Below, piece after piece: positions 1 through 40,067 of a stretch of 40,067 nt of DNA (its first letter is position 1; each line of letters begins with the position of its first letter). The DNA lies in assembly GCA_964557855.1 (NCBI GenBank), contig CAZLBP010000016.1, positions 41,703-81,769 on the forward strand. Direction: 5' to 3'. This stretch comes from an uncultured Ignavibacteriales bacterium. GTDB taxonomy: Bacteria > Zixibacteria > MSB-5A5 > GN15 > FEB-12. A model generated the notes under the pieces. That model saw only the letters and a list, made by a program, of their open reading frames with translations. It did not search any database and was not told the origin of the DNA. Both the position numbers and the translations under genes were made by a program.

Positions 1-53
1 TGTCATTCCCGCGAAGGCGGGAATCCAGTCAGGACCGAAGGTCCTGACCTGAG
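1..53. repeat. REP-like double-hairpin element copy 1 (ATTCCCGCG-N3-CGCGGGAAT followed by GTCAGGACC-N3-GGTCCTGAC)
   Basis: Two consecutive perfect inverted repeats seen directly: attcccgc/gcgggaat (8 bp) and gtcaggacc/ggtcctgac (9 bp). The same architecture recurs at 57..108 and 16997..17046. Confidence 0.8.
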
Positions 54-5075: not shown

Positions 5076-5110
5076 TTCCGATTGAACTGAAAGACTTGCG
5101 AGGATTCTAC

Positions 5111-6073
5111 GTGAAGACATTCATAATTGCTCTACAAAAAGACGGTACGCTGGTACCGATGTCGTTCGAACTTATCGAAGCTGCCAAATCGCTGAACTGC
5201 GAAATATCCACCGCAATCCTGGCTGAAAGCGCAGATAAAATGGCTTCGGAACTGGCTTCCAGAGGGGGTGGTCAGGTGCTGGCGGTATCCGATCCGAAGC
5301 TCAAGTACTTTAATGACGAATTGTATACGCTCGTACTGAAGGAGCTGATAGAAAAACACTCGCCCGATCTTGTTCTGGGTACGGCGACTTTCTACGGCAA
5401 AGCATTATTCGGCCGATTGGCCGCCAAGTTGGCCGCACCGATGGCCAGTGACGTTACCAAAGTGGCCGTTGAGGACGGTCAGGTGATGGTGACGAGGCCT
5501 CATTATGGCGGGGCAGTAATGTCGACCATCGTCAAGAATAGTGATAAGCCGTTGTTGGTGACCGTTCGCCCCAAGGTGTATCCGGAATCGAAGGAAGGAG
5601 CCGGTGAGGTGACCGCCGAGCCACTGGAAAGTTTGAACGCCGAGGTGCGCACGAACGTCAAAGAAATGAAAGTTGAGTCGGCGGGCGCTGTCAACCTGAC
5701 TGAGGCCGACGTGATCGTTTCGGCGGGTCGCGGTCTTAAGGGTCCGGAGAATCTGGATATGGTCAAGGAACTGGCCGATGCACTAAAAGGCGCGTTTGGC
5801 GCGTCCAGAGCCATAGTTGATGCCGGCTGGACGGAGTACGCGAATCAGGTGGGACAGACCGGTAAGACGGTCAACCCCAAATTGTATGTCGCCGTCGGTA
5901 TTTCCGGCGCCATACAGCACCTGGTCGGCATGCGGTCGTCGGGAACGATAGTCGCCGTGAACAAGGACAAAGACGCCCCCATCTTCAATGTCGCCAATTA
6001 CGGGATAGTGGGGGATGCTTTCGAGGTCGTACCGGCTTTGACAAGGAAGTTTAGGTCCGAATTGGGCACATAG
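5111..6073 (+). CDS. etfA: electron transfer flavoprotein alpha subunit (EtfA)
   Basis: FAD-binding C-terminal signature [16 protein letters not shown]-terminus [12 protein letters not shown] aligns with the EtfA start. GTG start at 5111 preceded by a GAGGAT RBS; the ORF track's TTG at 5096 is less likely. Confidence 0.85.
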
Positions 6074-36159: not shown

Positions 36160-38012
36160 CCGAAGAGTCGTTCCTTGGGATAGATGTCCAGATTCGTCAT
36201 CCAGGTTTTCAGGTGGGAGACCCGCTCGTCTTCAGAGAGCGTCGACAGATCGAACGGCCGCCCGCGACCGTCGAGAATTATGCCCACCACTCCTCCGTGC
36301 AGGGTTGTTTCGAGCTTGTTGCCCTTACCGGCGCCGACGTCGAACTGACGTTCCGGTTCGAGAACCGCTTTAACCTTGAGCGGCAAGCCGTCATCACCCA
36401 CGCCGAGTTCGTATTTCTTCATCTCCAGGCTGTTCAATGTTCCGGTGACCTGACCATCGGGCAAATCAATTCGGTATTTCATGATGGGTCCCGGTTTCTT
36501 GATCGTCCCGGAGGGGGCGACACAGGTGCCCAGATGAATGAGGCAGTCTTTTTCGAAGACCTCTGTAGCGGCTTTGGCTTGCACCTCGGTCAACACACCC
36601 AGCTGCGGCATCATGAAAATGGAGTCCACGGCGAGGCGAGTGACACCCTCGGGCAGGAAGGCATCGATCAACATCATGGCGGATTGCTGCCGGCGGGGTG
36701 CGTGCGAGAGCACTCCACCCGAGCCGATCAGCATATTGAGCGACATCATATTTACAATTGTAGCGCCGGAGCCGGATTGCTCGAACGCTTCGGCGATAGT
36801 GCGCTGTTGCTGGATGCCCTTCAACACAGTGGCGAAATTCTTGTGCTGAATGAAAGCCAGCCGCAGAGCCTCCTTGGCGATAGCCTGTTCGAAAATCAGT
36901 TCTTCCATCGATTGCGGAATCGTGGTCGGGCGGATCATCTTGTTCTTGACCCGATTGCGCAGATCCCTTTCGTCCATTTTGAACGGCGCCCAGCGCATGA
37001 CCATTGGCAGGGTAGCTTCCGCGAACACATTGGAAATGGAGTACGACATACCGAGGTTGGCGGAGACGGTACGGTTGAATACACCCTCGCCGCCGCCGGG
37101 ACGAAACACGGAAAACACATCGGTCGTCGCCCCGCCGATATCGACTCCGACCGCTTCGATATTGTACTGGTCGGCAATGGTCTTGATAATGAGTCCCACG
37201 GCGCCCGGGGTGGGCATGATGGGGGCGTCGGCCCAGGACATGAGCTTGTTGTACCCGGGTGCTTGCGCCATAACGTGTTCCATGAATAGTTCGTGTATTT
37301 CCTCACGGGCCGGGGCCAGGTTCTCTCGCTCGAGAATCGGTCGCAGGTTTTCAACCGTTTTCAGGTCGACTTTCTTGGCCAGTGTTTGATCGATATTCTG
37401 ACGAGCATTCTTGTTGCCGGCATAGATGACGGGCAGTTTGTAGGATGACCCCAGCCGGGGGCGGGGATCAGCGGCTGCGATCAATTCCGCCAGTTCGACC
37501 ACGTGCGTAGTCGTGCCGCCGTCAATGCCGCCGGAGAGAAGGATCATATCCGGGCGGAGATGCCGGATGCGCTCGATTTGCTGGTGCGGTTGGCGTTTGT
37601 CGTTGGAGGCGATGACGTCCATGACAATCGCACCGGCGCCCAGCGCGGCGCGCTCGGCCGATTCGGCCGTCATGGACCGCACCACCCCAGCCACCATCAT
37701 CTGCAGGCCGCCGCCGGCCGACGAGGTAGATATGAACACATCGGTTCCGGTTTTTCCGTTGGACGGATTGATGATCTTATTCTCTTCGTCCAGCAGCTTT
37801 CTCCCCGACAGCTCTTCCACTTCCTGAACGGCATTGAGCACACCCATCGTCACGTCTTCAAACGGGGCTTCAACCGTGGTCGGAGCCTCGCCGCGTGTGA
37901 TGAGGCGGTACTCGCCGTTGACATACTCGATCAGGATGGCCTTGGTCGTAGTGGAACCACAGTCGGTCGCCAGAATAACTTTAATATCTTTGGGGTTATC
38001 GAATTTTGCCAT
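36156..38012 (-). CDS. MutL(GlmL)/EutA-like ASKHA-fold ATPase (mutase-reactivase family homolog), 618 aa
   Basis: N-terminal phosphate-1 motif ILATDCGSTTTKAIL and internal VGVDIGGATTDVFSV match the paired motifs of the GlmL/MutL-EutA family (compare EutA GIDLGTTTTQ / IDIGGGT). It is ~150 aa longer than typical MutL. Confidence 0.5.
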   Translation of the reverse strand: MAKFDNPKDIKVILATDCGSTTTKAILIEYVNGEYRLITRGEAPTTVEAPFEDVTMGVLNAVQEVEELSGRKLLDEENKIINPSNGKTGTDVFISTSSAGGGLQMMVAGVVRSMTAESAERAALGAGAIVMDVIASNDKRQPHQQIERIRHLRPDMILLSGGIDGGTTTHVVELAELIAAADPRPRLGSSYKLPVIYAGNKNARQNIDQTLAKKVDLKTVENLRPILERENLAPAREEIHELFMEHVMAQAPGYNKLMSWADAPIMPTPGAVGLIIKTIADQYNIEAVGVDIGGATTDVFSVFRPGGGEGVFNRTVSANLGMSYSISNVFAEATLPMVMRWAPFKMDERDLRNRVKNKMIRPTTIPQSMEELIFEQAIAKEALRLAFIQHKNFATVLKGIQQQRTIAEAFEQSGSGATIVNMMSLNMLIGSGGVLSHAPRRQQSAMMLIDAFLPEGVTRLAVDSIFMMPQLGVLTEVQAKAATEVFEKDCLIHLGTCVAPSGTIKKPGPIMKYRIDLPDGQVTGTLNSLEMKKYELGVGDDGLPLKVKAVLEPERQFDVGAGKGNKLETTLHGGVVGIILDGRGRPFDLSTLSEDERVSHLKTWMTNLDIYPKERLFG

Positions 38013-38245
38013 GTATCCAACCTGTTATCTTGCAACAGACCTTTCTTCAAAATCGGAAACTCGTTTGTTCTGAAGCCCGACGCTTATCCGCCTGATAAAA
38101 TAGACTTCAGCTTATTTCTTCCCGGGCGGATTTCCGCCAAGACCGCAAGTATAATAACTCCGTTCGGAATTGTAAACAGGGATTTTTCAGGCGAAACAGC
38201 CCGATTTTGCTGCCGATGCGCCGTCAAGAATCCCGAGGCGGTCCC

Positions 38246-38356
38246 AAAAGGTGATATTCGGTCAACTTTCGTGTCGCGTAGAGGCGGGGCTCGTCCCAGC
38301 GGATCCGGCAAGTTGCTGCGGCGCCAGGCCGCACCCAGGGCGGGGAGGGCGCAGTC
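38246..38356 (-). repeat. conserved ~110-nt structured repeat, copy B (inverted relative to copy A at 10444..10554)
   Basis: The reverse complement aligns with copy A (gggacgagccccgcctctacgcgacacgaaagttga[a/c]cgaatatcac identical). The stem ugcggc-cuggc-gccgca corresponds to the copy-A stem with a compensatory A-to-G change. Confidence 0.6.
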
Positions 38357-38528
38357 AGTAGATGGGAACCTCCGTGGTTCCGACAGTCAATTCTTCACCT
38401 CACACCGTACCCTCTCCTTCGCAAAGAGAGGGGCGCCCGCAGGGCGGGGTGAGGATGGATCGGGTTTCGACATCATCTGCTCATTGACATCGCCGGTCCA
38501 AAGCGGTATACATAACACGGCAACGACC

Positions 38529-39581
38529 ATGACAGATAAGAGAAATGACATATCGATTAAGCTGACCGCCGAAGTCAGCTGCGCCGGTTGAGCCTCGAAA
38601 CTGGCGCCAAAGGTTTTGGCGGAAGCGCTCAAAGGATTGCCGGTCACGGCGCACCCGCAACTTCTGGTCGGCTACAACACGGCCGACGATGCGGGGGTGT
38701 TTCAGATCGCCGATGATCTGGCGCTGGTGCAGACGGTGGACTTTTTCCCGCCGATAGTGGATGATCCATACTATTTCGGGCAGATCGCGGCGGCCAATGC
38801 CATGTCCGACGTATATGCCATGGGCGGGCGGCCGCTGACTGCGCTCAATATCGTCTGCTTCCCGGGCAACATGCCGCCGGAGATTCTTACGGAAGTCCTG
38901 AAGGGCGGCGCGAAGAAGGTCGAAGAGGCCGGGGCGTTTGTGGTCGGGGGACACTCGGTCAAGGACAAGGAGCTTAAGTACGGCATTTCCGTGACGGGGA
39001 TAGTCCATCCTGACCGGATATTCACAAATGCCGGGGCGCGGCCGGGCCATATCCTCTATCTCACCAAACCGCTCGGCACGGGGCTGATAACGACCGGGAT
39101 CAAGCGCAATGCGGTCGGCGATGAATTGATTCGCCTGGTGACGGTCCAGATGACACAATTGAACAAGAACGCCGCCGAAGCGATGGTCAAATGCGGGGCG
39201 CACGCCGCGACTGATATAACCGGCTACGGGCTGCTGGGGCATGCTTTTGAGATGGCGGAAGCATCGGGGGTGACGATCCGCTTCGAGGCCGACCTAATAC
39301 CACTGATGCCTCAGGCGACGGAACTGGCGGCGGCGGGGATGATCCCCGGCGGGGCGAATGCCAACCGGGATTTTCTCGAGGGGCACATCCGGATAGCATC
39401 TTCGGTGGACAAAAATGTCGAGCATGTATTATACGATCCGCAAACATCGGGCGGCCTGCTGATCGCCATCCCCGAAGAGCGAGCGGAGCAGCTTGAGCGC
39501 GAGTTCGCGGAGAAAAAGGTATTCGGGCAGCGGGTGGGGGTGGTGCAGGAAGAATCGGGCGTGGGGATTGTGGTGGGGTGA
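38529..39581 (+). CDS. selD: selenide, water dikinase (selenophosphate synthetase) SelD, predicted selenoprotein with in-frame UGA (Sec) at 38592..38594
   Basis: After the TGA the ORF is clear SelD (VGYNTADDAGVF, DFFPPIVDDPYYFGQIAAANAMSDVYAMGG, AIR-synthase-like fold). In frame upstream, an ATG at 38529 gives MTDKRNDISIKLTAEVSCAG-U-ASKLAPKVLAEAL. This aligns with E. coli SelD [25 protein letters not shown] and places the TGA at the catalytic Cys17 position. Confidence 0.8.
38595..38630 (+). promoter_or_regulatory. candidate bacterial SECIS stem-loop immediately 3' of the selD UGA
   Basis: 13 nt after the TGA lies cgccaaa-GGU-uuuggcg, a 7-bp stem with an apical GGU. This is consistent with the position and loop G/U requirement of bacterial SECIS elements. 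Confidence 0.45.
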
Positions 39582-39654
39582 GTTTCGACCAAACATCTGA
39601 CAAAGTCTCTTAAGTCGGGGTGACTTTCAGCGGGTTCAGTAGCATTAGGCGATA

Positions 39655-40032
39655 GTGATGGAAGCGATTATTAATGTAGTTGATTGGCCGCATGTAACGC
39701 TGATTTTCGCAGTTGTCTTTATCCTGGTATTTAGACGTGCTATTACAGGTCTTATTAGTAGAACTAAGTCTATAAATCGGATCGGTCTTGACACCGTAGA
39801 CAATCCAAAGGTGCAGGATGACGACTCAAGAAAGAAGTCTGTCCAAGAGCTACTTGACAGAGCAGGAACGTCAAATGCCTTACAAGAAACAGAGAAGAAA
39901 ATAAAGAGAGACCTCCTACAAAGGGGTTTAGAGTCAGATGGAGATACTGTAAACGTCCTGGTCAAATACCTTGCTACCTTTCAGGTAATTCTTGAGTTTG
40001 AGCAAATCAATAATCCCGGATTTCCCATTTGA
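39655..40032 (+). CDS. hypothetical small membrane-anchored protein in an AT-rich terminal segment
   Basis: ORF with an N-terminal TM (VTLIFAVVFILVF) and a charged tail. The local GC content (~42%) contrasts with the rest of the window. Confidence 0.35.
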   Translation: MMEAIINVVDWPHVTLIFAVVFILVFRRAITGLISRTKSINRIGLDTVDNPKVQDDDSRKKSVQELLDRAGTSNALQETEKKIKRDLLQRGLESDGDTVNVLVKYLATFQVILEFEQINNPGFPI

Positions 40033-40067
40033 ATCTGGGTTCTGGGATCAAGATGCGTTATTTTCGG

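Follow-up and report, generated by a model that had tools for sequence, protein, structure and literature searches.

A probable selenocysteine-type selD gene with an in-frame UGA codon and a candidate SECIS hairpin in an uncultured bacterium

Selenocysteine (Sec)-containing forms of SelD (SelD/SPS2) are carried by Haemophilus influenzae, Methanocaldococcus jannaschii and Aquifex aeolicus, and by many Desulfobacterota, Clostridia, Campylobacterota and Chloroflexota. Sec-type SelD is widespread and has been catalogued across many bacteria, where it is often mis-annotated; in particular, gene callers routinely cut the gene short (PMC13326102, PMC4607533). In bacteria, Sec is decoded by a complex of SelB, GTP and Sec-tRNA(Sec) (PMC4607533, PMC12013277), and this is the basis of the mechanism proposed below. 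The SECIS element of Escherichia coli fdhF is a stem-loop spanning nucleotides 15-31, located 11 nt past the UGA, with a bulged U at position 17 and the loop nucleotides G23/U24 (PMC8659212). Bacterial SECIS elements are heterogeneous (PMC12013277). The SelD SECIS example in BSepDB, from Acetomicrobium mobile, is a hairpin over the same codons as the one described here (PMC13326102). The autoregulation of selD is what Guimaraes et al. 1996 ask about in their title, a work cited in PMC1717018 and PMC8659212. Sec-type SelD, a SECIS within the ORF and the idea of self-dependence or autoregulation have been described since 1996, and nothing in the gene reported here is biologically new. The value of the finding lies in annotation.

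We analysed a stretch of 40,067 nucleotides (the window) from an uncultured bacterium. A selD gene near its 3' end is highly likely to be of the Sec type, with the UGA at 38589-38591 read as Sec by means of a hairpin at 38605-38621 that serves as a bacterial SECIS. The features of this locus are collected in the table.

Table. Features of the selD locus, in window positions
Feature	Position	Strand	Remarks and basis
Full selD coding sequence	38529..39581	+	350 codons including the Sec codon; stop TGA at 39579-39581; translation and homology
ATG, probable true start	38529..38531	+	The same Met opens the closest relatives
In-frame UGA, inferred Sec codon (residue 21, E. coli Cys17)	38589..38591	+	Alignment; relatives
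TTG mistaken for the start by ORF finders, actually Leu30 of SelD	38616..38618	+	ORF list
SECIS-like upper hairpin	38605..38621	+	MFE fold; covariation; contrast of Sec-type with Cys-type genes
Possible extended SECIS, lower stem around the upper hairpin	38589..38631	+	Single-sequence MFE only

The frame that opens at the ATG is broken solely by this one TGA. The 20 codons that lead up to it encode MTDKRNDISIKLTAEVSCAG, and the peptide resumes after it with ASKLAPKV. A mechanical ORF list opens a 321-aa ORF at the TTG, 29 codons past the ATG. The closest relatives share the start Met: L002 reads MTDKREEISVKLTAQVSCAG, an in-frame stop and then ASKLGP; L001 reads MEDKREQIRIKLTAEVSCAG, a stop and then ASKLAP; and L082 reads MSMNDKRKEIGIKLTAEVSCAG, a stop and then ASKLGP. 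No conservation was seen among the relatives 5' of the ATG. The in-frame TGA, the upstream codons, the TTG and the hairpin are all present where the original prediction had placed them.

The region 5' of selD has a putative promoter consisting of TTGACA (38484-38489), a 17-nt spacer and TATACA (38507-38512), which ends 16 nt before the ATG. On our own reading of this site there is no obvious Shine-Dalgarno sequence between TATACA and the ATG, which suggests that the selD leader is very short. The promoter was not listed in a consensus scan because its second hexamer lacks the final T. Farther upstream, at 38300-38470, the 516-bp intergenic region that separates selD from a divergent MutL-like gene contains GC-rich inverted repeats, one nested in the other. 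Their arms pair 38398-38407 with 38445-38454 and 38410-38419 with 38423-38432, and the window has no second copy of the motif. As a candidate regulatory RNA these repeats were rejected as unsupported, with a fold z-score of -1.29 and no match to an Rfam family.

The identity of the protein was established with profile and structure searches. With the TGA scored as Cys, the read-through protein scores 389.3 bits against the TIGR00476 selD equivalog, whose cutoff is 125, and the match covers profile positions 1-310 of 311. The TTG-started ORF scores 364.4 bits, and its match begins only at profile position 33. The 29 upstream codons contribute profile positions 1-32 and 25 bits, and are therefore the missing N-terminus of SelD. 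The read-through protein also matches NF002098 (331.3 bits, cutoff 299), and the product contains the domains AIRS (PF00586, 3.2e-28) and AIRS_C (PF02769, 2.9e-17). The only exact match is a 1.8-kb Logan contig (SRR7048221_74649), on which the public gene call gives a 107-aa upstream ORF that stops at the TGA, followed by a 321-aa product. The view that the ORF call is truncated is thus borne out, both by the absence of profile positions 1-32 from the TTG-started product and by the identical error in the Logan gene call.

The best matches among solved structures are SelD of E. coli (3u0o, E = 1.9e-70) and SelD of Aquifex aeolicus (2yye, E = 3.5e-65). In the alignment with 3u0o, residue 7 of the query corresponds to chain residue 3, residue 21 (the TGA) to Cys17 and Lys24 to Lys20, and the SelD motifs DDA, DFF, N..SD and TD.TG are all intact. 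The loop from Cys17 to Lys20 is essential in the E. coli enzyme. It had been claimed that the translation of 38529..39581 would align with the SelD N-terminus and place the TGA on Cys17, and both parts of this claim agree with the alignment. The catalytic loop (window 38580-38600) reads C-A-G-U-A-S-K, with a Cys three residues before the Sec in a CxxU-like spacing. This Cys is found in many Sec-type relatives but not in all of them.

We compared the gene with relatives from genomes and from metagenomes (80 loci each), whose encoded proteins are 45-64% identical to its product. Among the genome loci, the column of the UGA holds TGA in 64 of 79 and a Cys codon (TGC or TGT) in the other 15, with one further locus cut off. 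A motif search over genome and metagenome loci together gave TGA in 127 of 149 and Cys in 22. The peptide is conserved both before and after this column. Judged by sequence, a column of this composition is the classical signature of a Sec/Cys pair. The original prediction of a Sec-type selD with its UGA at the Cys17 position is upheld by the relatives, by the alignment with the E. coli protein and by the match to the SelD profile.

The hairpin after the UGA consists of seven base pairs between the arms CGCCAAA (38605-38611) and UUUGGCG (38615-38621), capped by a loop of three nucleotides, GGU (38612-38614). It begins 13 nt past the TGA, so that the GGU loop is at +24..+26 counted from the U of UGA. 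The 17-mer has a folding energy of -7.1 kcal/mol, and the helix belongs to the MFE fold. However, the fold of the 62-nt region is not significant against shuffled sequences (z = -0.49), and in total stability the hairpin region does not exceed synonymous recodings. We also applied generic SECIS criteria patterned on the bSECISearch model: at least seven contiguous pairs, a loop of 3-8 nt with G in its first two positions, and a loop located 16-37 nt past the UGA. Roughly 10% of synonymous recodings produce a hairpin of this generic kind, and one follows 93 of the 1420 TGA triplets of the window (6.5%), whereas the exact in-register helix of seven base pairs arises in 24 of 20000 recodings (0.12%). 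None of the eight window genes that terminate in TGA has a hairpin of at least seven base pairs after the terminator. On its own the hairpin is weak evidence; it is the comparative data that are convincing.

In the MFE fold the upper hairpin is enclosed by a lower stem in which UGAGCCU (38589-38595) pairs with 38624-38631 with one bulge, and L001-L003 form a lower stem in a slightly shifted register. The extension of the SECIS by the lower stem is a tentative feature of the folding model. A search of the whole window against Rfam at gathering thresholds gave no match, and when 37950-38750 was scanned permissively, the only matches were to eukaryotic families, at chance level.

Among Sec-type relatives other than those of the Chloroflexi, at least six differing stem sequences maintain the helix at +17..+33. 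The variants include CGCCAAA/UUUGGCG, GGCCAAC/GUUGGCC, GGCCAAA/UUUGGCC and CUCCAGG/CCUGGAG, as well as GCCUAGC/GCUGGGC, ACGCAGC/GCUGCGU and GUCCGGG/CCUGGAC. At least six of the seven in-register pairs are present in 22 of 41 Sec-type relatives as compared with none of 14 Cys-type relatives (Mann-Whitney p = 8e-4). In the ungapped alignment A1, 77.4% of the cells of the named helix are paired, as opposed to 24-48% after a shift of the 3' arm by one to three columns. The covariation score in A1 is 0.418 against 0.225 for shuffled alignments and was reached by none of 500 of them, and both sides change in five of the seven pairs; as the sequences are related and protein-coding, these helix statistics are not to be taken as probabilities. 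RNAalifold found no consensus structure in a heterogeneous alignment of 41 sequences; the helix is not part of its prediction and becomes evident only once its pairs are specified and tallied. The claim of a SECIS-like hairpin downstream of the UGA is therefore sustained by the MFE fold, by covariation and by the absence of the helix from Cys-type relatives.

The hairpin is common to the window and to some relatives of the Zixibacteria, Ignavibacteria-labelled, Krumholzibacteriia and Desulfobacterota types. Its three-nucleotide loop at +24..26 is G-rich, being GGN in most cases and also GUU, GUG or AGA. Sec-type selD genes of the Chloroflexota type (L018-L079 and many metagenome loci) are without the +17..33 helix and have two neighbouring hairpins, GGGCC/GGCCC at +15..28 and GGCGCAG-GUN-CUGCGCC at +30..46. 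Some Cys-type genes partly retain the latter hairpin, owing to the LAQVLRP peptide.

A single in-frame stop looks like a fresh nonsense mutation, and gene callers treat the TGA as such, so the gene might be a pseudogene, or the TGA an error of sequencing or assembly, with no full-length protein made. The 20 upstream codons are nonetheless open and conserved at the protein level, every SelD motif has been retained, and the independent Logan assembly, compared by its gene calls alone, has an identical 321-aa product and an upstream ORF whose end comes shortly before that product, just as in the window. The decisive observation is that most relatives have TGA in the very same column and the remainder have Cys. 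Because this Sec/Cys column is conserved, a nonsense mutation or sequencing error is effectively refuted, and we regard such an origin as extremely improbable. An open frame across the TGA would likewise be accounted for if UGA were reassigned throughout the genome to Trp (code 4) or Gly (code 25). However, 8 of the 21 Pfam-supported genes in the window, selD itself among them, use TGA as their normal stop; selD alone of these 21 confident genes has an internal TGA, the other 20 having none, and TGG encodes Trp throughout. As TGA is a normal terminator in the window and is internal nowhere else, the recoding is site-specific and the code has not been reassigned. In addition, the homologous position holds Cys and never Trp or Gly, and we give a reassigned code virtually no credence. 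No other selenoprotein gene was found in the window when TGA was read as sense and ORFs were joined across it; the joined ORFs were only shadow frames overlapping Pfam-supported genes in another strand or frame. It can also be imagined that the locus makes two products, a leader peptide of 20 residues plus a functional, N-terminally truncated SelD from the TTG, which lies 8 codons past the TGA and is the start that ORF finders choose. Such a truncated form would lack the loop from Sec/Cys17 to Lys20 and would cover the SelD model only from where the TTG-started match begins. Moreover, the TTG is a conserved Leu codon within the 3' arm of the hairpin, and homologues, Cys-type genes included, encode an uninterrupted N-terminus. 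Two products are in our judgment just as improbable as a pseudogene or an error.

A closer rival accepts Sec at the UGA and takes the hairpin for a by-product of the peptide and of the high G+C content, the real SECIS being elsewhere or not a simple hairpin. The fold z-score that falls short of significance, the frequency of comparable hairpins in synonymous recodings (10%) and after TGA triplets of the window (6.5%), the absence of an RNAalifold consensus and the different registers of the hairpins in Chloroflexi Sec-type selD genes would all fit with this. What speaks against it is that the in-register helix has been preserved through compensatory changes, that it is lost in Cys-type genes despite their similar peptides, and that the exact helix appears in so few recodings (0.12%). 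We consider a by-product hairpin to be quite improbable, and prefer the reading in which the hairpin itself acts as the SECIS of a Sec-type selD.

In the preferred reading, translation would open at ATG 38529, and the ribosome would insert Sec at the UGA rather than terminating. As the ribosome arrives at this codon, the hairpin would recruit SelB-GTP-Sec-tRNA(Sec). The predicted enzyme has 349 residues and carries Sec21 in its N-terminal glycine-rich loop near Lys24, and selenium would be the catalytic nucleophile. Without Sec-tRNA(Sec), translation would end after 20 residues, so the synthesis of SelD should require its own product; if so, expression should follow the supply of selenium in a positive feedback. 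Autoregulation of selD by selenium, a plausible and old hypothesis, would then apply to this gene as well.

The machinery for Sec would have to be complete elsewhere in the genome. Within the 40-kb window there is no selA, selB or selC: no SelA or SelB domain occurs among the ORFs, and ARAGORN found no tRNA in the window and hence no selC. In three relatives with a Sec-type selD, a gene for tRNA-Sec (selC) is located directly 3' of selD (L029, 7001-7095; L106, 1556-1650; L109, 3989-4083), and all three have the hairpin in the same register. No such gene follows selD in the window. Neither selA nor selB was found beside selD in the gene neighbourhoods of L001, L002 and L029, which instead contain unrelated housekeeping genes (isocitrate dehydrogenase, GlyRS and RNase G), and these three neighbourhoods show no synteny with the window. 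Because a Sec-type selD is conserved, there is nevertheless a strong case, drawn from sequence comparison, that the organism uses selenocysteine.

The gene would be correctly annotated as a selenoprotein of 349 residues, with a translation exception for 38589-38591, and not as a 321-residue protein that starts at TTG 38616. The gene also flags its source as a probable user of selenocysteine, in which other genes interrupted by UGA merit a selenoprotein search.

Right after selD, at 39582-40067, the G+C content falls to 0.42, from 0.60 within selD, and this segment may be foreign or recently acquired. It contains an ORF (39655-40032, 125 aa) with no Pfam match, and in Logan contig L081 a 124-aa gene is called at the matching place just after selD. 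The segment 10864-14471 encodes a large protein whose C-terminal domain is of the FlgD_ig type and, after it, a PorV-like protein; both are hallmarks of type IX secretion. These hallmarks, together with the Ignavibacteriales and Zixibacteria MAGs that have the closest SelD relatives, indicate that the source is likely an uncultured bacterium of the FCB group. At 5096-6073 there is a gene for an ETF alpha subunit without an adjoining ETF beta gene; upstream of it is a gene encoding an FHA domain on the opposite strand.

When compared with the SECIS of E. coli fdhF, the hairpin spans nucleotides 17-33 rather than 15-31, its spacer is 13 nt rather than 11 nt, and its loop presents G24-G25-U26 in the place of G23/U24. 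It therefore shares the spacing of about 11 nt and the exposure of G and U in an apical loop, at nearly the same distance from the UGA. The bulged U17, however, has no counterpart in the window: the E. coli SECIS requires a bulged U, whereas the window helix is a perfect stem of seven base pairs with a loop of three nucleotides and has no bulge. The lower stem of the window element is poorly conserved, and there is no match to an Rfam family. Since the loop and the spacing are alike and the bulge is absent, the putative element is best called SECIS-like and not a copy of the fdhF type. A bolder proposal, suggested by sequence and in our view unlikely, is that the hairpin would represent a distinct SECIS subtype, and that Cys18-x-x-Sec21 might in addition form a selenenylsulfide acting as a redox gate on SelD activity. 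If a bulge-less subtype of this kind were real, SelB would recognize it in a mode other than that of E. coli.

SelD of E. coli (3u0o) is collinear with the window protein over residues 7-328, with conservation of the catalytic Lys and of the motifs that bind metal and ATP. In E. coli, however, Cys17 is encoded by UGC and there is no SECIS, whereas the window gene has UGA at this position. The window loop also has Ser where the E. coli protein has Cys19. The Sec-containing SelD/SPS2 proteins are closer still to the window gene: they likewise belong to TIGR00476, likewise have UGA at the Cys17 position in an N-terminal G-x-G-[U/C]-x-x-K loop, and likewise have a SECIS hairpin right after the UGA, within the coding sequence. 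The best relative in a genome is 64% identical and comes from an Ignavibacteriales MAG, followed by Zixibacteria MAGs at 58-59%. From known Sec-type SelD, the gene in the window differs in lineage and sequence only.
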